A model generated the notes under the pieces. That model was given only the letters and a program-made list of their open reading frames with translations, was not told the DNA's origin and searched no databases. A stretch of DNA of 64,000 nt from a virus. Each line of letters begins with the position of its first letter. Position 1 is the stretch's first letter. The stretch spans positions 32,001 to 96,000 of the IMG/VR virus record IMGVR_UViG_3300044816_000098; one strand, given 5' to 3'. Positions 7,000 to 58,493 of this stretch are shown here, one piece after another. Both the position numbers and the translations under genes were made by a program.

Positions 7000-7400
7000 C
7001 AGAGCTTGACGATCTGGACGAGACCCCGGAGTTCGATCCGGGGAACCTCGCCATCAACATCACCCGGTACACCATCCCGTACTGGGTGACGCACTGCGAA
7101 GAGCGGGCCTTCACGCTGGAGAGCCGGGGGCACATCGGGGAAGACCGCTGGGCCCTTCTGGACGCGCCCCACTGCTTCAACAAGCGGACGGGGGAGTTCG
7201 AGTACGAACTCCGTCCCTCCTCTCGGGACGACGATTTTCTCCGTGACTGCCGGATGACGCTGGAAGAGGCCATCCCTCACGTCAAGGAGCAGGTTGCCCT
7301 CAAGCGTGTGGCCGTGCGGGAGCAGATGACCCGCATCCTCCAGCGCAATGCCGAGCGGGAGGCCGCCAAGGCCAAGACGAAGGAGGGGCCCAGTGGTTGA
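6996..7400 (+). CDS. hypothetical protein
   Basis: GTGA overlap; codon bias. Confidence 0.7.
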   Translation: MTELDDLDETPEFDPGNLAINITRYTIPYWVTHCEERAFTLESRGHIGEDRWALLDAPHCFNKRTGEFEYELRPSSRDDDFLRDCRMTLEEAIPHVKEQVALKRVAVREQMTRILQRNAEREAAKAKTKEGPSG

Positions 7401-19943: not shown

Positions 19944-20612
19944 ATGTCCAGGACGTCATTGCCGATGTACAGCTTCGACTCGAATACCGGTGTCGTGACC
20001 GTAAACAGCGGTGTGGGCTACCACAGCAGCCACATCACGTACACGGCGGACACCAACATCAACGCGTTCCAGCCGTCGTACCCCAGTCCTGCCGAGCAGG
20101 CCCCGAAGAAAGAAGAGGTCTCTATGCGCACCTACCAGATCGAGTTCAACAGTTCGAAGCCCAACGAGGTCGTCGAGGGCGTTCACCAGGTCGTCACAGA
20201 CAACGGCATGATCGCCTTCTACGGTGAGGACCGCCGGGTCCTGCGCTCCTTCCTGGTGACCGGCATCTTCGCCTACGGCGTCGTGGCCGACCCGGAGAAG
20301 CTCGTCGTCGGGAAGTACCTCTTCACGCTGCACCTGATCGACAACGCCACCAAGACGGTCGCGGCGGACACCTACGTGATCACCAAGAGCGGCGACGAGG
20401 GCAGCTCGGTCTACGAGTTCTTCACCTCGCTCTCCGAGCAGGGAACCAAGACCCGCAGCGAGCTGGCCATCCCGTACGGTGCGGTCAAGTACGTCGAGCG
20501 CGTCGACCCGGAGAAGGCCCAGACCGCCGCCGTGGACTCGCCGAGGACCGGCGGTCGTCTCATGGACACCGAGGACTACGGCGACGCCGCCCGGCCCCCG
20601 GCCAAGCGCTAG
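19944..20612 (+). CDS. hypothetical protein (start uncertain; alternative 20124)
   Basis: ORF with codon bias. Confidence 0.7.
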   Translation: MSRTSLPMYSFDSNTGVVTVNSGVGYHSSHITYTADTNINAFQPSYPSPAEQAPKKEEVSMRTYQIEFNSSKPNEVVEGVHQVVTDNGMIAFYGEDRRVLRSFLVTGIFAYGVVADPEKLVVGKYLFTLHLIDNATKTVAADTYVITKSGDEGSSVYEFFTSLSEQGTKTRSELAIPYGAVKYVERVDPEKAQTAAVDSPRTGGRLMDTEDYGDAARPPAKR

Positions 20613-20686
20613 TCCCTACCCCCTGCACGATGCGGGCCGGTACCCATCCCGGGTACCGGCCCGCCGTGCGTCTGAGAGGAGCACAC

Positions 20687-21175
20687 ATGGCCGTGTTCAG
20701 CCGCAGAGAAGAGGTCTCCCGCAAGGTGATCTTCTTCGTTCTGTCGCCGACCAACTTCGCCGAGTTCGACAAGGCCATGACGGCCGCGACCCGGGAACTC
20801 TCCGAGAAGAGGAAGAGCCTCTTCGACGACTCGTTGGCGGTCGAGGCTCATGATGATGAGATCCACATCTCCTACACGGAGAAGGTGGATCTTCCGGCGC
20901 CCAAGTCGCAGGGCCAGATTATGAAGGAGGCGGAGGAGGCCGCTCAGCTCGACTCGGTGATCTTCCATATCTACTTCGCCAGCGGCAAGTGGAAGAAGCG
21001 GACCGAGAGCCTGAGCGACCGGGACAAGGAAGCTGCCGCGCAGGCGGTGGAGCGGCACATCGACACGATGCGCAACCACCTGTACGACAACGCCGGAAGG
21101 ATCCACCAGGACACCGTGCTGGACAACCCCGACGTCATGGAGCAGAACCTCCGCTGGTGGGAGCCGGAGGTATGA
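20687..21175 (+). CDS. hypothetical protein
   Basis: GAGGAG RBS. Confidence 0.75.
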   Translation: MAVFSRREEVSRKVIFFVLSPTNFAEFDKAMTAATRELSEKRKSLFDDSLAVEAHDDEIHISYTEKVDLPAPKSQGQIMKEAEEAAQLDSVIFHIYFASGKWKKRTESLSDRDKEAAAQAVERHIDTMRNHLYDNAGRIHQDTVLDNPDVMEQNLRWWEPEV

Positions 21176-21348
21176 GGCGCCTGATCGCCCGCTTCTGGTA
21201 CGAGCGCCGGAACCGCTGTCCCTGGGCGTGCAACGAGATGCACACCGAGACGGGCTTCTGTCTGATCGCCCAGCAGCGCGAGCGGGATAAGCGGGTCTCG
21301 GTCCTCGAAGGGGCCCTGGAGTACATCAAGCGCAACAAGCTGTCCTGA
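21172..21348 (+). CDS. small hypothetical protein
   Basis: GGAGG RBS, ATGA overlap. Confidence 0.6.
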   Translation: MRRLIARFWYERRNRCPWACNEMHTETGFCLIAQQRERDKRVSVLEGALEYIKRNKLS

Positions 21349-21350
21349 GC

Positions 21351-21379
21351 TTGTACTACTGCAATCGCAGGAGTAGAGT
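21351..21379 (+). promoter_or_regulatory. repeated promoter-operator
   Basis: TTGTAC-17bp-TAGAGT. Confidence 0.85.
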
Positions 21380-21411
21380 TCCCGCATCACCTGACTCCCC
21401 TGGAGGAAGAC

Positions 21412-21945
21412 ATGAAGAGAGCATTCGACTTCTGGGCCGCATCCGACCTTGCGGCCAAGGGCCATGAAGGCCAGATCGACAAGCTGGGGGTGCCGTACAT
21501 ACAGCACCCTCGTGAGGTCGCCCTCGGTGTCCTCCAGTTCGGGGAGGACCATGGCATCGTCGCCCTCCTGCATGACCTCGTGGAGGACACAGAGATCACC
21601 CTGGAGGATCTGCGCCAGATGGGCCTGTCGGCGCCCTGCACAGTGGCTGTGGGCCTCCTGACGAAGGAGAAGGGGGAGCGGTCCCAGGACTACCTGATGC
21701 GGATCGCGGCGTACCCCATGGCCTGCCGGGTGAAGATCGCGGACAACGCGCACAACACCCTGCCGGAGCGGACGGCCAAGCTGGCTGAGACGGCGGACCA
21801 GGCGACGATCGACCGGCTCGGGCGCAAGTACCGGCAGGCCCAGGACATCCTGTGGGCCGCGATGCCGTACACCGAGGTCAAGGCCATCCTGAAGGTCATG
21901 AACCCGGACCTGATCGAGCGCCTGCGTGAGGTGTCGTTCCGGTGA
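21412..21945 (+). CDS. HD-domain hydrolase, SpoT/Mesh1 small alarmone hydrolase-like
   Basis: HEGQIDKLGVPYIQHP, LLHDLVEDT, VKIADNAHN. Confidence 0.85.
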   Translation: MKRAFDFWAASDLAAKGHEGQIDKLGVPYIQHPREVALGVLQFGEDHGIVALLHDLVEDTEITLEDLRQMGLSAPCTVAVGLLTKEKGERSQDYLMRIAAYPMACRVKIADNAHNTLPERTAKLAETADQATIDRLGRKYRQAQDILWAAMPYTEVKAILKVMNPDLIERLREVSFR

Positions 21946-22064
21946 GCAGGCGGGCGTGGGCCTTTGCCCTGAGCTTCAGTCTGCTGATCTGGGGCAGCAT
22001 AGGGGCCCTGATCTGCGCGTTCGTGTGAGCCATGGAGCCCCCGGAGAAATCCGGGGGCTCCTGC

Positions 22065-22093
22065 TTGTACTCCGGCAATTGCAGGAGTAGAGT
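22065..22093 (+). promoter_or_regulatory. repeated promoter-operator
   Basis: TTGTAC-17bp-TAGAGT after hairpin 22034-22061. Confidence 0.85.
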
Positions 22094-22134
22094 CTCTCTT
22101 GTCACCAAGGAACACCGACTCTCCGGAGGTCCCC

Positions 22135-22446
22135 ATGGCTCTCAGCTCCTTGAACCGCACCCGCGTCATCGCCGCCATGAAGGCGAAGGTCCCCTTCGAG
22201 TACTCGTCCATCTCCGGATGGACGGCGAGGGGTGACGGAGACCTGCGGACCGGCGACCTGCCGGAGCCCTACCTCCAGATGCTGCTGAGCGCGGACAAGG
22301 CGGGAGAGGTGGAGTTCGTGGTCATGTCGTACCGCACGCCGATCGCCTGGATCCTGAAGAACGGCCTCGTCATGGTCCCGGAGGTCACCTACTCCTTCAC
22401 CACGAGCCAGCACCAGCGGATCGTGGAAGAGACCCTCTGCCGGTAG
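22135..22446 (+). CDS. hypothetical phage protein
   Basis: VMSYRTPIAW..YSFTTSQHQ; leader motif. Confidence 0.8.
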   Translation: MALSSLNRTRVIAAMKAKVPFEYSSISGWTARGDGDLRTGDLPEPYLQMLLSADKAGEVEFVVMSYRTPIAWILKNGLVMVPEVTYSFTTSQHQRIVEETLCR

Positions 22447-22449
22447 AGC

Positions 22450-22478
22450 TTGTACTCCTGCGATCCTTGTAGTAGCGT
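22450..22478 (+). promoter_or_regulatory. repeated promoter-operator
   Basis: TTGTAC-17bp-TAGCGT. Confidence 0.85.
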
Positions 22479-22514
22479 CTTCTCCAACAGCACAATGACT
22501 CCCCGGAGGCTCAC

Positions 22515-23129
22515 ATGACGAACATCAACGAATGCCGCGACCGGCTCCGCAATCTGGCCGCCCAGCTCATCGACGCGGACGGCACCTCCACCGCAGCCCT
22601 CGTCCAGGCGGCCGTTGCCCTGGAAGAGGCCATGGTCGAGCAGGAGGAGTCCACGGCCTACCGCCGGTTGCAGGAGTTCCTCCGCCAGCACCAGGTGGCC
22701 AAAGCCCAGTACCTGAACCGCAAGCGGGACTTCTCGCCGGGCGCCCAGGACGACCAGATCCACGTCCTGCACCATGACAAGTACGTCGGTGCCGTCTCGC
22801 TGCGTTACTCCGACCTGGAAGAAGTGGTCGGCATCTCGCAGCGGGACACCAAGGCCGAGTACTACGGCCTCCAGCGGCAGCGGCTGGCGAAGGTCCTGGC
22901 GGCCAACCCCAGGCTGACGGACAAGCAGAAGCTCGCGCTGGAGATGGTGGCCGAGGGCAAGGTCACGTACATGTACGGCGTCCGGGACCACCGCCGGTCC
23001 TTCAACGGGCTGGACCAGAGCGGAGTCTCCGCCCAGACCATCACGGGCCTGGAGACGCGAGGCATCCTGACCACGATGTCCGATCACTCCCACTCGGGCC
23101 ACATGAGCATCGCCCGGGTCAAGAGCTGA
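22515..23129 (+). CDS. hypothetical protein (possible C-terminal wHTH)
   Basis: LTDKQKLALEMV..TITGLETRGIL. Confidence 0.75.
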   Translation: MTNINECRDRLRNLAAQLIDADGTSTAALVQAAVALEEAMVEQEESTAYRRLQEFLRQHQVAKAQYLNRKRDFSPGAQDDQIHVLHHDKYVGAVSLRYSDLEEVVGISQRDTKAEYYGLQRQRLAKVLAANPRLTDKQKLALEMVAEGKVTYMYGVRDHRRSFNGLDQSGVSAQTITGLETRGILTTMSDHSHSGHMSIARVKS

Positions 23130-23277
23130 TGGCCAACCTCTCCGAGGTCGACAGGGCGGCGCAGGTCCACCAAGAGGAACTGCGCCGTCTTGTCCAGGAC
23201 CCCACACCCGAAGCCGCCGCTGATCTGTTGGAGCAGTGGGACGGCTACTACAACCGCGAAGACGCCTGGAGGGCGAA

Positions 23278-23796
23278 ATGACGATGACCCGTGAGCAGTT
23301 CATGGCGGACATGCGGCACCAGTGGATGAACCGGATGGATCCGCACAAGTTCCAGGGCTTCGAGGGGGACGAGTACAACGCGTGGCTGGAGCACCGGCAC
23401 GCCTGGCCGATCGACGAGGACGGGCGCTGTGCCCCCTCGGTGGTCCTGTCGATGCAGGACGGGGGAGGGGACTTCTCGGCCGAGGAGTGCACGGTCTGCA
23501 TGCGCCTGGCGGACCTGTACCGCATCTACACCAGCGGCCACAAGGAGGAGTGTCTCGACCAGCAGGCGGGGGAGATCACGATCACGCGGCTGGGAGACGA
23601 CTCGGTCGCCTTTCACTTCCCCAACGGCGTGGGGGACCTCGCGCCCCCGGTGGACCTGGTGCTGAGCAAGACCGAGTACGACGTGTTCAACCGCGCCCAC
23701 ACCCGCTTCCTGCGCACGGACGCGCTGATGCTGACCAAGGCACTCGTGGGCGAGGTCCGCAAGGGCTTCAAGCAGTTGTGGGCGGAGGGCAAGTGA
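23278..23796 (+). CDS. hypothetical protein
   Basis: GGAGG RBS. Confidence 0.75.
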   Translation: MTMTREQFMADMRHQWMNRMDPHKFQGFEGDEYNAWLEHRHAWPIDEDGRCAPSVVLSMQDGGGDFSAEECTVCMRLADLYRIYTSGHKEECLDQQAGEITITRLGDDSVAFHFPNGVGDLAPPVDLVLSKTEYDVFNRAHTRFLRTDALMLTKALVGEVRKGFKQLWAEGK

Positions 23797-23972
23797 CCGA
23801 CGTGCCCCAGGACGGCGACGTTCTCTCGCTCACCCTCACCTACGACATCTTCGATGAGGTGGACGGCGAGTTCCGCGAGGTCGAGTACAGCGTCGAGGCC
23901 ACCCGCCAGGGCCTCGTCAGGGTCCTCCAGGCCATGGACGAGGCCAATGACGAGGAGGGGGCTGATGCCTGA
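23793..23972 (+). CDS. small acidic protein
   Basis: GTGA overlap. Confidence 0.65.
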   Translation: MTDVPQDGDVLSLTLTYDIFDEVDGEFREVEYSVEATRQGLVRVLQAMDEANDEEGADA

Positions 23973-24192
23973 GCCCATGAGGCCCTTCGGGGTCATCCTG
24001 ACGGAGCTGGTCGACGTGACCGAGCAGCTCAACGAGCTGAAGGCCCGGCACAGGGCGCTGGTCATCGAGGCGGACGAGCACGTGGTGGCCTTCGCGCCCG
24101 GGGCGACCCGGGCGAAGATCGCTGTCTTCGCAGATCTGTACCCCAGCACGATGTACCGCTGGTTGAAGAGTGCGGGGCACCCCGTCACCTAG
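23965..24192 (+). CDS. small HTH protein
   Basis: GATRAKIAVFADLYPSTMYRWLK. Confidence 0.7.
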   Translation: MPEPMRPFGVILTELVDVTEQLNELKARHRALVIEADEHVVAFAPGATRAKIAVFADLYPSTMYRWLKSAGHPVT

Positions 24193-24195
24193 GGG

Positions 24196-24224
24196 TTGTA
24201 CTCCAGGAATTCCCGTAGTAGCGT
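24196..24224 (+). promoter_or_regulatory. repeated promoter-operator driving the RAMP/array operon
   Basis: TTGTAC-TCCAGGAATTCCCGTAG-TAGCGT. Confidence 0.85.
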
Positions 24225-24263
24225 TCCACCTGCCAGAGAAACACCGACTCCAAGGAGGCCCAC

Positions 24264-24848
24264 ATGGGTAATCAGCTCAAGGTCCAGCTCACCCTCACCG
24301 GCACCGCACCGATCCTCATGCACAACGCGCGGCTGGCGGACCCGCTGGACAGCTACACCAAAATGCTCAAGGTGGTGTCATCCAAGCGGACCAAGACCGA
24401 CGACGACCACGAGGAGATGGCCCGCGTCGAGTTCCTTGGGGGCCTGTACTGCGACGACGTCATGGGTCCGTACATCCCGGGCGTCAACCTCCACCAGTGC
24501 CTGATCGAGGGAGCCAAGCTCACCCGGCGCGGTCGGCACGTGGAGCGCGGCGTGGTGGTCATGGAGGAACAGCTCCTCCTCGCATACAGCGGCCCCCGCA
24601 CGCCGGACGAGCTGTACGCGGACAAAAACTTCCGCTCGCGGCTCTCGGTGGGTGTCACCACCTCCCGCGTCATGCGGACCCGCCCGAAGTTCTCCTCGTG
24701 GGCCCTGGAGGCCAACCTCGTCGTGGACACCGGGCAGCTCGACCTCAACGACATCAACGAGATCAGCGAGACGGCCGGGATGATGATCGGCCTGGGCGAC
24801 TACCGCCCGCGCTACGGCCGGTTCGATGTCGTGGTGACGGAACTCTGA
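24264..24848 (+). CDS. minimal Cas7/RAMP-like RNA-binding protein (Vipr-like effector)
   Basis: LTLTGTAPILMH, PYIPGVNLHQCL and Gly-loop GLGDYRPRYGRF match RAMP hallmarks; immediately followed by GGY-NN arrays. Confidence 0.8.
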   Translation: MGNQLKVQLTLTGTAPILMHNARLADPLDSYTKMLKVVSSKRTKTDDDHEEMARVEFLGGLYCDDVMGPYIPGVNLHQCLIEGAKLTRRGRHVERGVVVMEEQLLLAYSGPRTPDELYADKNFRSRLSVGVTTSRVMRTRPKFSSWALEANLVVDTGQLDLNDINEISETAGMMIGLGDYRPRYGRFDVVVTEL

Positions 24849-25279
24849 CGTTCAGGGCAAGGCATGGCAAGGCTCGGTAGAGCTGGGCCAGGCTGGTCAA
24901 GGCAGGGTTCCCCATCAGGGCTTCACGGCGCTAGTGGGGGCGTTCAAGGCGGGGCGTGGCAAGGCACGGTACGGCACGGCGGGGCAAGGCAGGGTTCCCC
25001 TTCAGGATTTAAAAGTCCTGGAGGGGGCGCTCTGGGCGAGGCTTGACGGGGCTGGGTATGGCCAGGTCTGGCGGGGAAAGGCAAGGCAGGGTTCCCCTCC
25101 TCAGGATCACACCTGAGGAGGGGGCTTTGAGGCGGGGCATGGGCAGGACCAGGCGGGGCGCGGTGTGGCCGTGTAGGGCACGGCGTGGCAGGGTTCTTCT
25201 CCCTCTGGGTCAGACCAGGGGAGAGGGCAATCAAGGCGCGGCACGGCGCGGTTAGGCAAGGCAAGGCATGGCAGGGATC
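24849..25279 (+). ncRNA. guide-like array A: five GGY-NN pentamer tracts separated by hairpins
   Basis: Tracts start at 24856, 24948, 25035, 25131, 25235; the first four end GGCAG-GGTTC plus a GC hairpin, the fifth ends GGCAG-GGATC. Confidence 0.85.
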
Positions 25280-25302
25280 ACCACCGACTCACAGGAGGAA
25301 CG

Positions 25303-25881
25303 ATGAAGAAGTTCGAGGCCGAGGACCAACAGCCTCGGTGGGCACGGGTCTACAACGGCATCCGCGCCCTGAAGACCGGTGAGGCGGCCACCTATCACCA
25401 GCTCAGCGAGTGGGCAGGGGTGGATGTCACCGGGACCAACAGGGCCTGCGTCTACGAGGCGATCCGGTTCTTGCAGCGCAAGGACCACCGGACGCTCGCC
25501 TGTATCCCCACGGTGGGCTACATGGTGGTTCCGGCCAGTGCTCACGAGGATCTCGCCAAGAAGCACAACAAGAAGGCGGGTCGTCAGCTCCGCGAGGCCA
25601 TCGGCAAGGTCCAGTCGGCTGACCGGAACTACCTGACCCCGGCCGAGGCCCGGCGGATGGATTCCATGGAGGTGGACCTCTCCCGGCAGAGGCACATGAT
25701 CATCGGCCTGAGTCGGCGACTCGACAGGACCGAGACCGCCATCAAGGAGGCCCGCCAGCGCGACCGCGAGGCCAAGGGCACCATCGCTCAGCTCTCCGAG
25801 GAGAAGGACGCTCTGGCCACCGAGGTGCGCGAGCGCCTGGCGCGCCTGGAGCAGGTCCTCCTGGACCGCACGGCGGCCTGA
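25303..25881 (+). CDS. accessory protein: wHTH-like N-terminus plus coiled coil
   Basis: ATYHQLSEWAG..VYEAIRFL..PTVGYMVV then heptad-rich C-terminus; AGGAGG RBS; lies between the arrays. Confidence 0.75.
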   Translation: MKKFEAEDQQPRWARVYNGIRALKTGEAATYHQLSEWAGVDVTGTNRACVYEAIRFLQRKDHRTLACIPTVGYMVVPASAHEDLAKKHNKKAGRQLREAIGKVQSADRNYLTPAEARRMDSMEVDLSRQRHMIIGLSRRLDRTETAIKEARQRDREAKGTIAQLSEEKDALATEVRERLARLEQVLLDRTAA

Positions 25882-25889
25882 TCCCCAGA

Positions 25890-26136
25890 CTTCTTGGGCA
25901 CGGCTCGGCTCGGTAGGGCCAGGCGTGGCACGGCAAGGCGCGGCAGGGTTCCCGCCCTGGGGATCACACCTCAGGGCGGGGCGTTCCGTGGCAAGGCAAC
26001 GCAAGGCGGGCCGGGGCGCGGTGGGGCAAGGTACGGCTTGGCATGGCGAGGTTCCCCACCAGCACTTCACGGTGCTGGTGGGGGCGTTCAGGGTTAGGCA
26101 GGGCTGGGCTGGACAAGGTAAGGCAGGACATGGGAG
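25890..26136 (+). ncRNA. guide-like array B: three GGY-NN pentamer tracts
   Basis: Tracts start at 25897, 25990, 26092; hairpins at 25951-25980 and 26054-26083. Confidence 0.85.
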
Positions 26137-26173
26137 GAGACCCCGCAGGTCAGATGACTTGCGGGGTCTCTTC
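26137..26173 (+). terminator. terminator hairpin closing the array operon
   Basis: GAGACCCCGCAGGTCA-GA-TGACTTGCGGGGTCTC-TTC. Confidence 0.7.
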
Positions 26174-26184
26174 ATGCAGCGGGG

Positions 26185-26213
26185 TTGTACTCCTGCAATC
26201 CTTGTAGTAGCTT
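26185..26213 (+). promoter_or_regulatory. repeated promoter-operator
   Basis: TTGTAC-17bp-TAGCTT. Confidence 0.85.
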
Positions 26214-26254
26214 TCTCTTATCACCATGAACCACTGACTCCCCTGGAGGGTCAT

Positions 26255-26914
26255 ATGCAGGACGAGAACCCCATCGAGGCGGAGCAGCGCAGGCGCCAGG
26301 AGGCCCTGGACCAGGCGTGTGCTGACCGGTACCTCGCCATGCTGGAGGTCGAGCACGGGGACACCTTCCGGGAGGCCGTCAAAGAGGGTGAGGAGTACGA
26401 GCGCCGGAAGGAGGAGCTTCGCGCCCACATCCTGAAGACGTACGACGTGGGCGATTTCAACCAGGAGAACCTGCATGGTGATCCGCCTGCGCTCACTCCG
26501 GAACAGGCCGAGAAGCTCCAGAAGGCGGCCAAGCGGGTGGCGGATACAGCCCGCAAGCACCTGTATGAGCAGACGCTCTCTCCGGAGGAAATCCGGGAGG
26601 ACTTCGTTCCCCGCATCGGTGGCTGGACGCCCGGCAGGCACAAGCCGGAGACCCACGAGGGCCTGCTCTTCGAGCTGGAGGCGGAGCGGGCCATGTTCCT
26701 CGGCAAGGGCGCGCCCAAGGATCCGGACCCCGACCTCCAGGCCCTGCACCAGGAGCTGCATCAGCTCCACGTGACCTACCAGCGCACGGGGGACCGCTCC
26801 CTGTTGCTCCCGATCGCAGACCTGACCGCGCGGTACAACGCGCTGATCAAGCCGAAGCCCCGGATGGACAAGCCGAAGAACCCCAACCCCTTCCCCCGCT
26901 TCACCGTCGACTAG
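26255..26914 (+). CDS. hypothetical protein
   Basis: Leader motif and RBS. Confidence 0.75.
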   Translation: MQDENPIEAEQRRRQEALDQACADRYLAMLEVEHGDTFREAVKEGEEYERRKEELRAHILKTYDVGDFNQENLHGDPPALTPEQAEKLQKAAKRVADTARKHLYEQTLSPEEIREDFVPRIGGWTPGRHKPETHEGLLFELEAERAMFLGKGAPKDPDPDLQALHQELHQLHVTYQRTGDRSLLLPIADLTARYNALIKPKPRMDKPKNPNPFPRFTVD

Positions 26915-26949
26915 ACCCCATCACGCTCAACGACTCCCTGGAGGTCTCC

Positions 26950-27417
26950 ATGGACCCTCTCGTCCTCCCCGTCGCCCTCGGTGCCGGGATCCCGTCCTAC
27001 CTCGTCGTAGGCGCCCTCACAGCTCGCCGCGCCTACCGCCAGATGTCCGCCGAGTGGTACGAGGAAATGATCCAGAAGTGCCTGACGAAGTGGCGCTGCA
27101 CGGAGATCTCCGCAGAGGGCATGCAGAAGATCGACGACACCTTCCGGGACGACGGATCCACGGAGGCGGTCTTCGGAGCCCTGCTCTCGGGAGCCCTGTG
27201 GCCGATCACCTGGGTGTGGGGCTTCATCTTCGGCACCCGCATCCCGACCGGCCTGGAGGCGGACACCCGCAAGGCGGTGGAGAACGCCGAACTGCGCAGG
27301 AAGATCCAGCGCCTGGAGCGGGAGGTGGACGACGACCTCCAGGACCAGCTCTCCACGGCGGAGGCTGCCCGTCAGGCCGCCCGCAAGGCCCAGCGCAAGG
27401 CCCTTCGCGACAACTGA
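26950..27417 (+). CDS. membrane protein with coiled coil (paralog 1)
   Basis: Two TM segments, LWP, EADTRKAVENAELRRKI. Confidence 0.8.
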   Translation: MDPLVLPVALGAGIPSYLVVGALTARRAYRQMSAEWYEEMIQKCLTKWRCTEISAEGMQKIDDTFRDDGSTEAVFGALLSGALWPITWVWGFIFGTRIPTGLEADTRKAVENAELRRKIQRLEREVDDDLQDQLSTAEAARQAARKAQRKALRDN

Positions 27418-27455
27418 CCACATCCCGCATACCCATGACTCCCCAGGAGGCATCC

Positions 27456-27905
27456 ATGTTCATCCATCTCGACCTGTTCACCCTGACGACCGTGCTACCG
27501 GCCTATGCCGCTGTCGGCACGGTCTACGCCCGGATCCACTACCGGGCCCAGGTCCGCAAGTACTACGCCGCCGCCGTCCAGGCGTGGAAGGACAAGAACG
27601 GCGGCCAGGACATGACCCCCGCCGGGATGCAGCAGATCGACACGGGCTTCCACAGCGTGGGCCAGAAGAAGCTTTCCGGCATCGCCTTCGACAAGGGCAT
27701 CTTCTGGCCGGTCGCCCTGGTGGGCTCCTTCATCTACTCCACCCCCAAGGCGGAGGGGGCCGAGGCCGACGCCCGCAAGGAGGTCGAGAACGCCCGGCTC
27801 CGCAAGAAGATCGAGCACATGGAGGCGGTCATGGAGAAGGAGGCCCAGGATCGCTTGGCCATCCTGGAGGCCGACGACGGCAAGAAGGGCTGGGACATTG
27901 TTTGA
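27456..27905 (+). CDS. membrane protein with coiled coil (paralog 2)
   Basis: Two TM segments, FWP, EADARKEVENARLRKKI. Confidence 0.8.
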   Translation: MFIHLDLFTLTTVLPAYAAVGTVYARIHYRAQVRKYYAAAVQAWKDKNGGQDMTPAGMQQIDTGFHSVGQKKLSGIAFDKGIFWPVALVGSFIYSTPKAEGAEADARKEVENARLRKKIEHMEAVMEKEAQDRLAILEADDGKKGWDIV

Positions 27906-28227
27906 GCGCCCTGCCCCCGAGGGGGAGCCCGGCTACTGGGACCAGCCCGATCCCCTGCTCCCGGCGCACCTGGATACGTTCTCCCTGTTCGCCATGAACG
28001 AGACCACGATCTCCCAGATGCAGCGCATGGGCTGGGAGGAGGAGCACGTGGACCAGGTGCGGGCCTCGATGGACTCCGTGTACGTCCGGTACCGCGAGGA
28101 GCTGGCGGAGCAGTACATGAGCTACCCGGCGCACCTGAGGGCCCACCAGTGGTTCATGAGGGACTACCTCCCGGCCATCCAGTTCTGGCCCGACGGAGGG
28201 GTCCTGGACAGCTCCCACCCCCGGTAG
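27898..28227 (+). CDS. hypothetical protein
   Basis: Codon bias; start uncertain. Confidence 0.65.
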   Translation: MFERPAPEGEPGYWDQPDPLLPAHLDTFSLFAMNETTISQMQRMGWEEEHVDQVRASMDSVYVRYREELAEQYMSYPAHLRAHQWFMRDYLPAIQFWPDGGVLDSSHPR

Positions 28228-28294
28228 AGCCCCTGCATGACCCCGAGGGCCCGTCTGCGTAGTGAACGTCAGACGGGCCCTCGAACATGTCTTA

Positions 28295-28323
28295 GGTTAC
28301 TACAAGGATTCTTGTGGTAGGCT
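28295..28323 (+). promoter_or_regulatory. degenerate promoter-operator copy
   Basis: TACTACAAGGATTCTTGTGGTAGGCT; weak -35. Confidence 0.6.
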
Positions 28324-28392
28324 CTACCAAGAATTGTACGAGGGAGGTATTCATCCTCATCTCGTTCCCCGTAATCCCCTGAGGAGACTCAC

Positions 28393-28557
28393 ATGAACCA
28401 CTACGGATCTCTGGCACACACCGGTGTGGGCCTGACCATCGCTGGGGTGGTGCTCGACCAGACCTGGCTGATCACCGCTTCTGTGGCCCTGGTCGTGCTC
28501 GGTGCCCTGGTCGTGCGCGTCACCTTCCGCCGCAACCGCACCGTGGACAGCATCTGA
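28393..28557 (+). CDS. 54-aa peptide with LAxTG-like motif, hydrophobic segment and basic tail (not in ORF track)
   Basis: MNHYGSLAHTGVGLTIAG..VRVTFRRNR; GAGGAG RBS; TGATG coupling to the GT2 gene. Confidence 0.7.
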   Translation: MNHYGSLAHTGVGLTIAGVVLDQTWLITASVALVVLGALVVRVTFRRNRTVDSI

Positions 28558-29975
28558 TGGCCGCTGTACCCACTGCGACGTTCGCGGGACCTGGACGGGT
28601 CGCAGCACTGACGCTCATACCTCTGGTGGGCTTCATCGCCTGGGGGATCTACCACGCGCTGGCCGTGACCCAGGCGTTCGAGGGACACGGCAACAAACTC
28701 GCCACCGCGTGGGCTGTGTCCTTCCTGCTGCTGTGGTGGGTACCGGTCGCGTGGAGAGAGAAGCCCCTCACCGCGACACCTCGCCAGCAGAAGGCGCTGG
28801 ACCGACTCTTCGTCACCGTGCAGATCCCGGCCTACAACGAGGAGGAGAACGCTCTTCGCCAGTGCATCCAGTCGCTCTTCGACCAGACCCGGCTTCCGAA
28901 CCGGATCCACGTGGTGGACGACGGCTCGGTGGACAAGGCCCAGGGCGTCCCGATCACCTACGACGCGGTGAAGGACTGGTTCCTGACCACGGCGTGGGAC
29001 CTGGGGATCGAGGCCACCTGGGTGCGTACGGTGAACCGGGGCAAGCGGCACGCCCAGATGGAGGTCCTGACGGACGATGACGGGGACATCTTCGTCACCC
29101 TGGACAGTGACTCCGTTCTGGACCGCCAGGCGCTCAGAGAGGGCCTCAAGCCCTTTGCCGACCCCAAGGTGATGTCGGTCGCGGGCATGGTCGTGGTGCT
29201 CAACAGCCGGGACAACCTGCTGACGTTCATGACGAGCATGCTGTACCTGCCCTTCACCCGGGGATTCCGCTCCGCACAGTCGGTGCTGAAGCGGGTCATG
29301 GTGAACTCGGGGACGCTGGCGTTCTACCGGGGAGACGTGGTGCGCAAGCACGCGGGCTCGTACGAGAACGAGAGCTTCCGTGGCAAGCCCATGCAGATGA
29401 ACGACGACTCCATGCTGACCTTCTACGCGATGCTGGAGGGGGACACCGTCCACCAGCCGTCGGCTATCTGCTTCACGCTGGCGCCGGTGAAGGTCAAGCA
29501 CTACCTGAACCAGCAGTTCCGCTGGATGCGGGGGACCTTCGTCCGCACCTTCTGGTGGTTCCGGTACCTGTCGCCCACGAGCATCGCGTGGTGGATGCCG
29601 GTTATGGAGATGGCGCAGCTCCTGCTGTCGCTGATCATCCCGATCGCGCTCATCACGGATCCGGCCCAGGCCGGGAACATGTGGAACCTGGTCCAGTCGA
29701 CCATCTGGGTGGGGCTCGGGGTCAACTACGTGATCGCCCTGAGGTTCTTCTCCATCGACCGGACGGACGAGTCCTTCTGGTTCCGCATGGCGCTGTTCCT
29801 CACCTCGCCCCTGACGGGCATCTGGCGCCTGCTGGTGCTGCGTCCCATGTACTTCTACGCTCTCGCCACCTGCTGGAAGGTCGGCAAGTGGGGGACGCGG
29901 GAGACCGTCGAGGTCGGTATGGCCCCGGTGGATCAGCCCGTCGTACCGCTCGACAAGATCAACACCAACGCCTGA
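28557..29975 (+). CDS. processive GT2 glycosyltransferase (hyaluronan synthase/NodC-like)
   Basis: PAYNE, DDGS, NRGKRHAQ, DSD, NDD, QQFRW; TM helices at both ends. Confidence 0.9.
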   Translation: MAAVPTATFAGPGRVAALTLIPLVGFIAWGIYHALAVTQAFEGHGNKLATAWAVSFLLLWWVPVAWREKPLTATPRQQKALDRLFVTVQIPAYNEEENALRQCIQSLFDQTRLPNRIHVVDDGSVDKAQGVPITYDAVKDWFLTTAWDLGIEATWVRTVNRGKRHAQMEVLTDDDGDIFVTLDSDSVLDRQALREGLKPFADPKVMSVAGMVVVLNSRDNLLTFMTSMLYLPFTRGFRSAQSVLKRVMVNSGTLAFYRGDVVRKHAGSYENESFRGKPMQMNDDSMLTFYAMLEGDTVHQPSAICFTLAPVKVKHYLNQQFRWMRGTFVRTFWWFRYLSPTSIAWWMPVMEMAQLLLSLIIPIALITDPAQAGNMWNLVQSTIWVGLGVNYVIALRFFSIDRTDESFWFRMALFLTSPLTGIWRLLVLRPMYFYALATCWKVGKWGTRETVEVGMAPVDQPVVPLDKINTNA

Positions 29976-29983
29976 GGAGAACC

Positions 29984-30232
29984 ATGCCGAACAGTGAAGA
30001 GCACCGGGCAGACCTGTGGGACGCGCTCGCAGATCTGGGGTCCGAACGGAAGACCACCCTGTTCAAGAAGCGGCTGTGTTTCGAGGACAACAACGAAGCA
30101 CTCGACCTGGACCCTGTGGTTCTCGCGGCATTGGAGGAGACCCTCACGGTTCTGATGAGCCGCGCGGACGCTCAGTCCTATCTCCATGAGCGAGTGCTCC
30201 TAGCCAAGCGCTTCGTGCCCAAGGTCGACTAA
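29984..30232 (+). CDS. hypothetical protein
   Basis: GAGGAG RBS. Confidence 0.65.
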   Translation: MPNSEEHRADLWDALADLGSERKTTLFKKRLCFEDNNEALDLDPVVLAALEETLTVLMSRADAQSYLHERVLLAKRFVPKVD

Positions 30233-31816: not shown

Positions 31817-32020
31817 ATGGCAACCATTACCCAGCTTCGTTCCGCCGCCAAGCAGGGCGCGACTCTCATCGTCACCAGCGGCGTGTACGAGGGCGAAGAG
31901 GTCTACTACAGCCCCGATGGTGACGAGCTGCCGTGGCGTGTGACCGGGAAGACCTGGCTGGACCGGGTGCACTCCAGCCAGGTCGAGATCGTGTTGGAGC
32001 AGGACTGCCCCAGCGCTTGA
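31817..32020 (+). CDS. hypothetical protein
   Basis: Leader motif and RBS. Confidence 0.7.
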   Translation: MATITQLRSAAKQGATLIVTSGVYEGEEVYYSPDGDELPWRVTGKTWLDRVHSSQVEIVLEQDCPSA

Positions 32021-56024: not shown

Positions 56025-58493
56025 ATGGACTTCGACGACGACGACTACCGCGAGCTGTTGGCCTTGTGGGGACAGCAGCCTGGTGCTCCGACTCAGGAGT
56101 CCATGCGGAATCGGCACACCAAGGTGCGGGTCAATCCTTCGCGAGACGATTTGAAGGTGCGGCGGAGGAACAACCGTCGTACCGCCACCGACACCTTCAA
56201 CGCAGGAGGAGATGTGCAGACCCGCGCCGAACTCCGTGCCTCGCTCACCAAGGCTTCGAGCCTGGCTGAGCAGGCGCGACTTCTGGACGAGATCGCCAAG
56301 CTCGACAGCACCAAGCTGGTCACGACCGCGCAGTCCCGGGAACTGGACTTCGCGAACACCGTGGTCAACGAGACCATGGCGCCCGTCCGGGTACACGAGC
56401 ACCACACCGCCGCCACGGACTGGATGGGCTACGACGAGCCTCAGCACACCGACTGGCAGAACCGTGTGGTCGCCGAGGCCGCCATGTGGCACTCCCGGGT
56501 GCCGGAGATGGTCAAGGCCGACGCCACCGAGTACACGATCCAGGCCGAGGGCAAGGCCCAGCAGTTCGCGGGCCAGTTCGGGATCCAGGCGCACGCGGCG
56601 AAGCTCACCTTCGTCCAGTACGCCACGTTCCTGCGCACCCAGGCCGCGTCCGGACTGGACCAGATCCAGCAGACCGTGGACCCGCACGACAACCCGAAGA
56701 CCACTCCGCTCAACCCCGAGGTCTTCGACAACTTCGCTCCGGACGTCGACCCGGTCAACGCGGGCGTCTCCGGTACCGAGGACTCGAACCGCAACCCGCT
56801 CCTCCAGGAGATCATGTCCGGCGGCTCGGGAGCGGACTCCGGTGCCCCGGAGAAGCCCTCCGAGCACGACGAGCAGGACAACCTGTCCTGGAACCCTCCG
56901 GAGGGCATGCAGGGCGATTCCACGCCCCCGCGTACGGCGTCGCTGATGCCGCACCGCTCCATGGCGATCGGCGGCAGCGCCTTCACCATGGACGACTTCC
57001 GTCGCCAGGCTGCGGCCCAGGCGGGTGGTCAGGGAAAAGCTGAAGGCGGTGCTTCGCCCGTCGTGGTGAAGACGGCCGCCAAGTGCAAGGACTGCAAGTG
57101 CGAGCTGTCTTCCCAGAACAAGGGGTCGACCGGCAAGGGCCTGTGCTCGAACTGTGAAGGGCGCAAGGGCGGTACCACTGCGGCGAAGGAAGCGGCCTCC
57201 GGGCTCGACCAGATCCAGCAGACGGTGGATCCCCACGACAACCCGAAGCCGACCGGCCTCCCGCCGGAGGTGGCCTTCCCCCTGGACGACGAGTTCCAGC
57301 AGGAATGGAACACCAACGGCTCCGGTGACGCCCAGCCGACCGGCAAGTCCGCCGGTCGCAAGGAGGACGCGGCGGCTGCGGCCAAGGCGAAGTCCGATGC
57401 TGCGGCGAAGAACATGAACGACAAGGTCGATCGGCTCATCGGTCCCGACCGGTCCCGTCCGGCCCAGACGGTCTGCCAGTCGTGCCAGAGGAACGCAGTG
57501 GAGGACCCCACCTCCAAGATCTGCAACTCCTGCCAGTCCCGGACCCGGCCGTACTACGCCTCGGTGCCGAAGCAGGCGGACATGTTCGGGGCCAGCGACG
57601 ACCCGCACGCCGTTCCTCAGCCGAACGTGGCCAACACCCCGGCCACCACGCCCCCGAACGCCACCGGCAGCTCTGCCGAGGGCCGTGCCGCCGGTGCTGC
57701 CGACGCACGCGCGGGGGAGCGTCCGAGTTTTGCCGACGGCTCCGGCGCCAACCCGTACGCGCAGGGTTACTCCGAGGGCTATTCGAGCGTGGACCAGAGC
57801 GCCGGGCTCCCGCAGAACGAGCCGGGCTCCATGGCCGGTCCGGGCAACGGTGTGACGCACGCGGCGAGCAAGACCTCGTCGATGATCGTCACCGCCGCCG
57901 AGCGGGAGGACCCCGACTTCAAGAAGGGGTACGGCTACGCGTCCCGGTGGAAGCCGGGCACCGTGCTGGTCTCCACCGGCTCCGCGTCCTTCGAGGCGGG
58001 CCTGTACGCGGGGATCTCCGACAACCCGGAGCACCAGCGGGCCTTCGTCACCGCTCACCGTGGCCTGGCCGCCGAGCACCCGAAGCTGGGCACCCGGGTA
58101 AACCGCCACAAGCAGCTCACCCAGCGGATCGCCATCAAGAACGAGGTGCCGACCAATGGTCTGTACCTTTCGGCATCCACCAGCGTTGACATGAACACCA
58201 TGGCGCCGAACACCACCCCGGCGGCGGATGGCTCCACCCCGATCAACGGACCCGGCCGCCCCGGACCCCTGGACGGCCAGCAGGACGCCGCCACTGCGGG
58301 AGGACCGGCTCCGTACAACGGCGCCGAGCCCTTCGGTACGCCGGTGGTCCCCACGGCCGGACAGACACCGCCCAGCCCGGCGGACGCACTGATCGGCGGT
58401 GGTGGCATGTCGACCACTCAGCAGGTCCAGGCATTCCGCAGGATCGTCCAGGCGAATCTTCTCGCCGAGCGCAAGCAGGGGAGTGAGATTTAA
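56025..58493 (+). CDS. large modular protein, probably virion-associated
   Basis: 822 aa; GAGGAGG RBS; internal 19-aa repeat; two CxxC modules. Confidence 0.8.
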   Translation: MDFDDDDYRELLALWGQQPGAPTQESMRNRHTKVRVNPSRDDLKVRRRNNRRTATDTFNAGGDVQTRAELRASLTKASSLAEQARLLDEIAKLDSTKLVTTAQSRELDFANTVVNETMAPVRVHEHHTAATDWMGYDEPQHTDWQNRVVAEAAMWHSRVPEMVKADATEYTIQAEGKAQQFAGQFGIQAHAAKLTFVQYATFLRTQAASGLDQIQQTVDPHDNPKTTPLNPEVFDNFAPDVDPVNAGVSGTEDSNRNPLLQEIMSGGSGADSGAPEKPSEHDEQDNLSWNPPEGMQGDSTPPRTASLMPHRSMAIGGSAFTMDDFRRQAAAQAGGQGKAEGGASPVVVKTAAKCKDCKCELSSQNKGSTGKGLCSNCEGRKGGTTAAKEAASGLDQIQQTVDPHDNPKPTGLPPEVAFPLDDEFQQEWNTNGSGDAQPTGKSAGRKEDAAAAAKAKSDAAAKNMNDKVDRLIGPDRSRPAQTVCQSCQRNAVEDPTSKICNSCQSRTRPYYASVPKQADMFGASDDPHAVPQPNVANTPATTPPNATGSSAEGRAAGAADARAGERPSFADGSGANPYAQGYSEGYSSVDQSAGLPQNEPGSMAGPGNGVTHAASKTSSMIVTAAEREDPDFKKGYGYASRWKPGTVLVSTGSASFEAGLYAGISDNPEHQRAFVTAHRGLAAEHPKLGTRVNRHKQLTQRIAIKNEVPTNGLYLSASTSVDMNTMAPNTTPAADGSTPINGPGRPGPLDGQQDAATAGGPAPYNGAEPFGTPVVPTAGQTPPSPADALIGGGGMSTTQQVQAFRRIVQANLLAERKQGSEI

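Follow-up and report, generated by a model that had tools for sequence, protein, structure and literature searches.

A probable type II-like VIPR locus with eight local guide units in a 154-kb phage genome

VIPR systems, described in two preprints of 2026 (bioRxiv 10.64898/2026.04.26.720920 and 10.64898/2026.04.26.720927, the latter reporting structures; hereafter the VIPR preprints), are built around Vipr, a minimal RAMP protein whose genes are found mostly in phages, and around guide RNAs of about 100 nt called vrRNAs, each consisting of 9–16 YNNGG repeats and a structured 3′ tail (the published threshold for their detection is at least four repeats). According to the same preprints, one Vipr protomer occupies each repeat, where the triplet GGY (Y, C or T) is held by the protein and the dinucleotide NN (N, any base) is shown for pairing; base-pairing of the complex with double-stranded DNA (dsDNA) passes over every third target base (the 1-nt skip rule), and rival phages and satellites are thereby silenced at the level of transcription. 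Natural targets are sought there under this rule with a match of at least 80% of NN. Next to vipr lies vap, an accessory gene, and the Vaps of the type II systems, e.g., that of Escherichia phage SUSP1, are predicted DNA binders. Here, a locus at positions 24196–26173 of a 64,000-nt stretch of viral DNA (hereafter the window) is compared with these systems. The window represents positions 32,001–96,000 of the IMG/VR record IMGVR_UViG_3300044816_000098, a complete phage genome of 154,156 bp with direct terminal repeats and a GC content of 65.6%, probably originating from a high-GC, actinobacterial host. The probability that the locus represents a type II-like VIPR system, with a vipr gene, a vap1-like gene, and eight vrRNA units, is put at about 0.9. 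The list of its parts, their homology, and the structure of the RNA come from the present analysis, whereas the mechanism is carried over by homology from the work on SUSP1.

The assignment starts with the product of the first gene. This protein of 194 amino acids matches the PDB entry 36pp_D, “SUSP1 Vipr protein”, over its residues 8–191 with an expectation value (E) of 2.6e-34, aligns with the SUSP1 gene at 35% identity in a tblastn search (E 1.2e-36), and falls together with SUSP1 Vipr into phrog_4652 of the PHROGs database (E 1.8e-57 for the protein studied here). It is 41–44% identical to the homologues from Pseudomonas phages and has no match in Pfam. Its AlphaFold2 model, with a predicted local distance difference test score (pLDDT) of 93.2, finds its best structural neighbours among type VII Cas7, Csm3, Cmr4, and Cas7-11 at a Foldseek probability of 1.0, and the VIA Z scores to Cas7-family RAMPs amount to 9.7–10.2 (10.2 for Csm3, 10.1 for type VII Cas7, and 10.1 for Cmr). 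The fold predicted from this model is a minimal Cas7/Csm3-like RAMP fold, a type defined by an RRM core, a G-loop, and a thumb, and the G-loop GLGDYRPRYGRF is conserved. The residues that read GGY in SUSP1 Vipr (H17, R138, D177, W178, and R179) correspond to H20, R140, D179, Y180, and R181, and the other published contact residues (K33, R39, and K82) to K36, R42, and K85. Across 37 homologues, all mapped contact residues are invariant or conservatively replaced; within the GGY-reading set, the histidine, the aspartate, and both arginines are invariant, and the aromatic position is taken by Y, W, F, or H. A preliminary description of the locus had suggested the name VIPR, expected a RAMP/Cas7 fold, and proposed that each subunit grips one GGY and displays the NN. 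The name proved to be correct, the fold is borne out by the model, and the proposed grip coincides with the published mechanism, having been recovered from the sequence alone.

The Cas7 backbones of Class 1 CRISPR systems (Csm3, Cmr4, type VII Cas7, and Cas7-11) share with VIPR the polymerisation along the guide RNA with a fixed period and the flipped bases. At the same time, their sequence identity to the Vipr of this phage is only 6–16%, VIPR has a period of 5 nt, in which three guide bases are sequestered, and its pairing is gapped, engaging two of every three bases versus five of every six. The phage also differs from Class 1 CRISPR carriers in having neither Cas1 nor a CRISPR repeat–spacer array. 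A search with working positive controls found no Cas1 in the 154-kb genome, as the preliminary description had held for the locus, and Tandem Repeats Finder at its default score reported no repeat array within 20000–30000 of the window. This program is blind to the arrays present there because two of every five bases vary in them, and the search of Rfam over the arrays gave no match. Since Pfam and Rfam hold no models for Vipr and its RNA and the tracts are invisible to Tandem Repeats Finder, standard annotation misses such loci.

The guide-encoding part of the locus comprises eight in-register GGY-NN tracts of 7–13 units each, 83 units in total. They were located with a chain detector that steps from GGY to GGY at 5-nt intervals and lets isolated defects of one base pass; on the SUSP1 locus, the same detector recovers the published layout of one guide, vipr, vap1, and three guides. 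Outside these tracts, no chain on either strand of the 64-kb window exceeds five units, and those found contain mismatches. The longest perfect GGY run reaches 11 units versus a maximum of five in 2000 shuffles, and the entropy over the 83 units is 0.28, 0.41, 0.84, 1.75, and 1.94 bits at the successive positions of the pentamer. The vrRNA units recur with a period of 87–107 nt, and six of the eight carry the ending GGCAG-GGTTC, a GC hairpin, and a GCGTTCA linker. An alignment of 17 tails (six from this locus, two from a distal array of the same genome, and nine from a sister phage, a 152-kb Joint Genome Institute contig whose Vipr is 92% identical) forms a 12-bp stem with 96.1% of the cells paired and compensatory changes in 11 of the 12 pairs; 0 of 500 shuffles were as good, and slid controls gave 43–66% pairing. 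Several of the stem pairs are G-U, valid on the transcript of the + strand only. The eight tracts had been listed in the preliminary description along with the recurrent GGCAG-GGTTC and hairpin endings; the former are confirmed by the chain scan, the shuffles, and the entropy profile, and the latter hold for the six units just mentioned. The dinucleotide strings given there agree with the present reading except for the first two of A4, which were one base out of register, and the last AT of B3, which belongs to a degenerate GACAT.

Small open reading frames (ORFs) can be drawn across the arrays, and a predicted DNA-binding protein is encoded between them, which would suit a role of the tracts as DNA-level repeats (iterons or sites of the winged-helix protein) or as translated glycine-rich repeats rather than guides. 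A 5-nt period is, however, incompatible with a reading frame, and the covarying hairpins, with G-U pairs that are valid on one strand only, speak for a transcript. The equivalents of the tracts in SUSP1 are sequenced RNAs that co-purify with Vipr (VIPR preprints). The orientation of the tracts points the same way. Among the loci of 76 Vipr homologues from bacterial and archaeal genomes of many phyla, a tract being counted when at least six units lay within 3 kb of vipr, 66 harbour tracts on the same strand as vipr and four on the opposite strand, so that the neighbouring arrays anticipated for the homologues are indeed there. Repeats acting as DNA or as protein can, on this evidence, hardly be credited, and the tracts are taken to encode guide RNAs of a VIPR system.

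The second gene, encoding 192 amino acids, had been seen in the preliminary description but left uninterpreted. It matches phrog_5926 (E 4.5e-5), the family that includes SUSP1 vap1 (E 1.1e-75), and hhalign pairs it with SUSP1 vap1 at a probability of 96.7% (E 3.7e-10). Searching the ORFs adjoining vipr homologues recovered 15 relatives of the gene, the profile of which matches SUSP1 vap1 with E 8e-12; a near-length search of a large protein database returned only the gene itself and its copy from the sister phage. In its AlphaFold2 model (pLDDT 92.2), a winged helix leads into a long helical stretch of about 110 residues. The structural neighbours of the model are weak matches, uniformly to winged-helix DNA-binding domains of the GntR/MarR/OmpR type, in agreement with the DNA binding predicted for type II Vaps in the preprints. 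Judging by these profile matches and the model, the gene is a homologue of Vap1 and a putative DNA binder.

As far as can be judged from the anatomy of the locus, it would probably be transcribed as one unit, from the motif at 24196 through the hairpin at 26137–26170, and the precursor would be cut between each hairpin and the next tract into guides of about 90–105 nt. Each guide would be a GGY-NN tract that closes with the constant pair GGCAG-GGTTC and carries a hairpin of 12 bp as its tail. By analogy with SUSP1, Vipr protomers would polymerise along it, one per pentamer, holding GGY and presenting NN; the resulting filament would pair with dsDNA of the form NN-x-NN-x and block the transcription of genes in rival mobile elements, and the winged-helix Vap would enhance the silencing. 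The targets would lie outside the phage itself.

The nature of the target deserves separate consideration: the closest CRISPR folds, i.e., Csm3, Cmr4, Cas7-11, and type VII Cas7, belong to RNA-targeting proteins, and the Vipr filament can pair with single-stranded RNA (ssRNA) (10.64898/2026.04.26.720927). Hence, the Vipr–vrRNA filament might act on RNA and block the translation or stability of rival transcripts like Cas7 of types III and VII. In the case of SUSP1, however, targets are found on both strands, dsDNA is bound, silencing is achieved from either strand, and with ssRNA the filaments were mostly incomplete and no triplex formed (VIPR preprints). Moreover, the residues clamping the non-target strand there, K82 and R39, are among those kept in the protein studied here. 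Action on RNA appears distinctly unlikely, and silencing at the level of DNA is the preferred mode for this VIPR system.

When the published pairing rule was applied to the 154-kb genome of the phage, none of the 12 guides tested matched it better than shuffled guides, i.e., no self-target was found. This result bears on another conceivable role of the arrays, that of a timing switch for the own genes of the phage rather than a weapon against competitors. Such a switch would be in keeping with the position of the locus among 17 promoter-like motifs of the same strand, in a gene block of early or middle appearance, and with the dispersal of further arrays over the genome. Apart from the result of the self-target search, it is at odds with the published systems, for which no self-targeting was found (VIPR preprints), and with the turnover of guides between the sister phages despite the 92% identity of their Vipr proteins. 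A regulatory role of this kind is deemed very improbable in comparison with the anti-competitor function of the VIPR system.

The sister phage shows the turnover of guides directly. Its layout is the same (vipr, an array of six units, vap, and an array of five units), and the guides common to both phages are A5, B2, and part of A4; all others differ. The dinucleotide string of A5 is identical in the sister phage, and three of its GGY triplets differ, two of them by a GGC/GGT exchange and one by a change from GGC to GCC; retention of NN while GGY varies is the pattern expected if NN carries information. B2 is kept with one change in its variable NN. In both sister phages, A5 abuts the ribosome-binding site of vap (window 25235–25302; sister locus L004:5069–5139), and it may serve as a guide embedded in the leader or as a cis-acting element of the vap mRNA.

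Five more guides lie outside the window, bringing the total in the genome to 13. Four of them form the distal array, about 94 kb from the sole vipr gene; one of its tails matches the A1 tail exactly. The fifth is a solitary tract flanked by two ORF-like regions and is possibly an orphan guide. Thirteen guides at three distant sites, apparently served by one vipr gene, constitute the second unusual point of this genome, along with the protein motif spelled by one of the local guides.

The search for natural targets yielded little for most guides. Exact scans of IMG/VR with the NN-x pattern returned 0 matches for A3 (20 fixed bases), B1 (18 fixed bases), the core of the distal guide D4, and the core of the orphan guide. 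Two matches of A1, both in contigs with 35% GC, and 12 unrelated matches of the A4 core are consistent with chance; the full-length match of a distal guide to the adjacent helicase gene (17/26) was no better than the shuffled null.

B2 behaves differently. When every third base is skipped, its 11 variable NN spell NNKGGAGKTFM, so that the guide, read in this way, spells a P-loop of the ParA/MinD type. The 18-base core of B2, common to both sisters, matched 26 IMG/VR contigs, and in 21 of them the match lies in frame on SNNKGGAGKT, the base that is passed over falling on the wobble position of the codon. When all 11 variable NN are counted, the IMG/VR parA-like genes match B2 at 19–20 of 22 bases and the B2 of the sister at up to 21 of 22. 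The parA-like “VLNNKGGAGKTTTVANFA” gene scores 19/22 with B2 and 20/22 with its sister version; its carrier (G405) is a 126,865-bp provirus of an isolate genome with 69.1% GC, the site being located near 58247. This site is the most host-plausible candidate seen for B2; no other guide matches the provirus.

A metagenome scan with the full 22-base pattern of B2 retrieved 44 contigs, 43 of which carry members of one gene family, “...CFANNKGGAGKTFMAYQLACEAAR”, matched at 22/22. The family is widespread in marine metagenomes, exceeds 416 amino acids, and has a ParA/MinD-like P-loop. As the natural target of B2, it was rejected: the contigs are marine, have 49% GC, and show eukaryote-looking flanks. 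These contigs may be picoeukaryotic. In the “CFANNKGGAGKTFMAYQLACEAAR” genes (e.g., L127:2605–3885), the region from the preceding stop codon to the P-loop contains no start codon, and the upstream sequence is of low complexity. In very large databases, a guide that spells a motif will find perfect matches of little meaning. With 24 fixed bases and up to three mismatches allowed, B2 had 0 matches in 401 sampled Actinomycetes genomes and 0 in five Vipr-carrying genomes. In a convergence test, 26 guides from the phage, its sister, and a relative with 69% identical Vipr were compared with all fetched loci and two complete parA-bearing viral records; only B2 rose above the shuffled null, and no other guide converged on parA-bearing elements.

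Overall, B2 would probably be directed at the P-loop (Walker A) codons of a gene for a ParA/MinD-type partition ATPase, and a gene of this kind in a rival element is a reasonable candidate for its target. It is more doubtful, and proposed only tentatively, that the phage in this way silences the segregation machinery of rival plasmid-like prophages, guides generally being selected to spell invariant protein motifs. If this were true, a single guide would reach all members of a competitor family regardless of codon usage. In any case, the P-loop of ParA-type genes provides one testable idea about the targets.

Several observations weigh against the assignment of the locus to type II-like VIPR systems. 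Seven of the eight local guides yielded no natural target, and the best matches of B2 reside in phage contigs of about 50% GC and in marine eukaryote-like contigs rather than in a real target. The tail hairpin is missing from A5 and B3. In the other units, the tail is a plain covarying hairpin of 12 bp flanked by GGTTC and GCGTTCA, whereas a pseudoknot was described for SUSP1. Finally, the type II label is putative insofar as it follows from Vap1 and from the similarity to SUSP1 and the Pseudomonas phages, not from the published tree.

These points are to be set against the close correspondence with SUSP1, a type II system with four guides (vrRNA1–4). Both loci encode a Vipr of about 195 amino acids with a shared PHROG and shared GGY-contact residues, followed downstream on the same strand by a Vap1 homologue. 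In both, the co-oriented GGY-NN guides measure about 100 nt and end in a structured 3′ tail; both loci are phage-borne and devoid of cas genes, and no self-targets were found for either. The differences, apart from the tail, concern the arrangement and the proportions of the parts: an array is inserted between vipr and vap here and there is no upstream guide, five more guides are situated far off in the genome, GGC is dominant instead of the GGT prevailing in SUSP1, and Vap has 192 amino acids with an extra long coiled coil versus 146 amino acids. Furthermore, SUSP1 has been characterised by experiment and the present locus by sequence and models. VIPR itself is already known from the 2026 preprints; the locus is a further clear example that leaves the concept unchanged. 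It is a well-resolved example from a probable actinophage, with eight local guides and 13 genome-wide, and it brings a Vap1 extended by a coiled coil as well as a guide tail of the hairpin type supported by covariation.

The coordinates of the features are collected in Table 1. The locus comprises two + strand genes, the only ones between the bounding exact copies of a phage motif, and two blocks of tracts; the order is vipr, five guides (A1–A5), vap, and three guides (B1–B3). Both genes had been delimited correctly in the preliminary description.

Table 1. Features of the VIPR-like locus (window coordinates) and guides elsewhere in the phage genome (genome coordinates, where indicated).
Feature	Position	Strand	Remarks
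Promoter-like phage motif	24196–24222	+	5′ of vipr; TTGTACTCC-N-G-N-AAT...GTAGTAGC; exact motif copy
vipr, 194 aa (amino acids), RAMP/Cas7-like, predicted guide-RNA binder	24264–24848	+	PDB 36pp, phrog_4652, AlphaFold2 fold
vrRNA unit A1	24856–24947	+	11 pentamers (24856–24910), tail hairpin, GCGTTCA linker
vrRNA unit A2	24948–25034	+	10 pentamers (24948–24997), tail hairpin
vrRNA unit A3	25035–25141	+	12 pentamers (25035–25094), tail hairpin; longer linker with two out-of-register GGC units
vrRNA unit A4	25142–25234	+	11 pentamers (25142–25196), tail hairpin; units 1–7 identical in the sister phage
vrRNA unit A5	25235–25274	+	8 pentamers, without tail hairpin; runs into the vap ribosome-binding site
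vap (Vap1-like), 192 aa	25303–25881	+	N-terminal winged helix, long C-terminal coiled coil
vrRNA unit B1	25897–25989	+	11 pentamers (25897–25951), tail hairpin
vrRNA unit B2	25990–26091	+	13 pentamers (25990–26054), tail hairpin; 11 variable NN
vrRNA unit B3	26092–26126	+	7 pentamers, then directly the end-of-unit hairpin
GC-rich hairpin, 11-bp perfect stem	26137–26170	+	closes the unit; read from the sequence
Next promoter-like motif copy	26185–26211	+	start of the following unit
Distal array, four guides	genome 151052–151382	−	tail hairpins as at the main locus; chain scan
Solitary 12-unit GGY-NN tract	genome 111498–111557	−	GGCAT-GGCAG at its end, then a GC hairpin of its own

The full form of the bounding motif is TTGTACTCC-N-G-N-AAT-N-C-NN-GTAGTAGC. 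With up to three mismatches, it occurs in 17 copies in the window, all on the + strand, versus 0 expected by chance, at 662, 2868, 11044, 12833, 17130, 18003, 22065, 22450, 24196, 26185, 30442, 34412, 35127, 35633, 42517, 44591, and 47571. Several copies contain the inverted repeat TACTCCTGCAATTGCAGGAGTA. The copy at 24196 can be read as TTGTAC-N17-TAGCGT and the whole class as TTGTAC-N17-TAnnnT; the motif probably represents a phage-specific class of early/middle promoters or operators. A degenerate copy is present 5′ of the distal guide array.

The preliminary description had placed a promoter at 24196 and a terminator at the end of the locus. The first position does hold a copy of the motif, but the sigma-70 consensus scanner makes no call there, and the promoter role is ascribed to it conditionally. 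The GC hairpin is likewise present, and a similar element occupies the matching position in the sister phage; it lacks a T-run, so the consensus scanner for terminators gives no call. The hairpin probably serves as a terminator, as the tail of B3, or as both.

A megablast search with 24 kb of the genome revealed no cultured phage similar at the DNA level, and a tblastn search of cultured phages with one large ORF gave no match. At the level of the VIPR proteins, relatives exist in Mycobacterium phage LittleE (gp34, vipr; gp33, vap) and Gordonia phage MakoManhole (gp78, vipr; gp77, vap): the Vipr of the present phage is 47% identical to that of LittleE and 55% identical to that of MakoManhole, and the respective E values of the Vap profile are 7e-45 and 1e-47. 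Co-oriented GGC-rich tracts with GGCAG ends flank the genes in both. The two phages differ from the one studied here in having vipr and vap adjacent, with guides upstream and downstream of the pair (2 + 3 in LittleE, 1 + 2 in MakoManhole), and in their smaller genomes (109 and 62 kb, respectively). Their records annotate the genes as hypothetical or DNA-binding only, gp77 being a “DNA binding protein”. As cultured phages with unannotated VIPR modules, they offer a tractable and direct route to experiments. In LittleE, the module lies among the tail genes, on the strand opposite to theirs (phage positions 22798–28367), and in MakoManhole, it lies within phage positions 56769–61592.

A different arrangement is seen in the relative with 69% identical Vipr, a 160-kb genome in which six guides lie 5′ of vipr (L005:2717–3887 and 7107–7146). 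Each of these guides has its own terminator-like hairpin, in some cases followed by a TTGAC-like sequence, and small ORFs are situated between them. The guides of this relative may be transcribed singly, not cut from one precursor.

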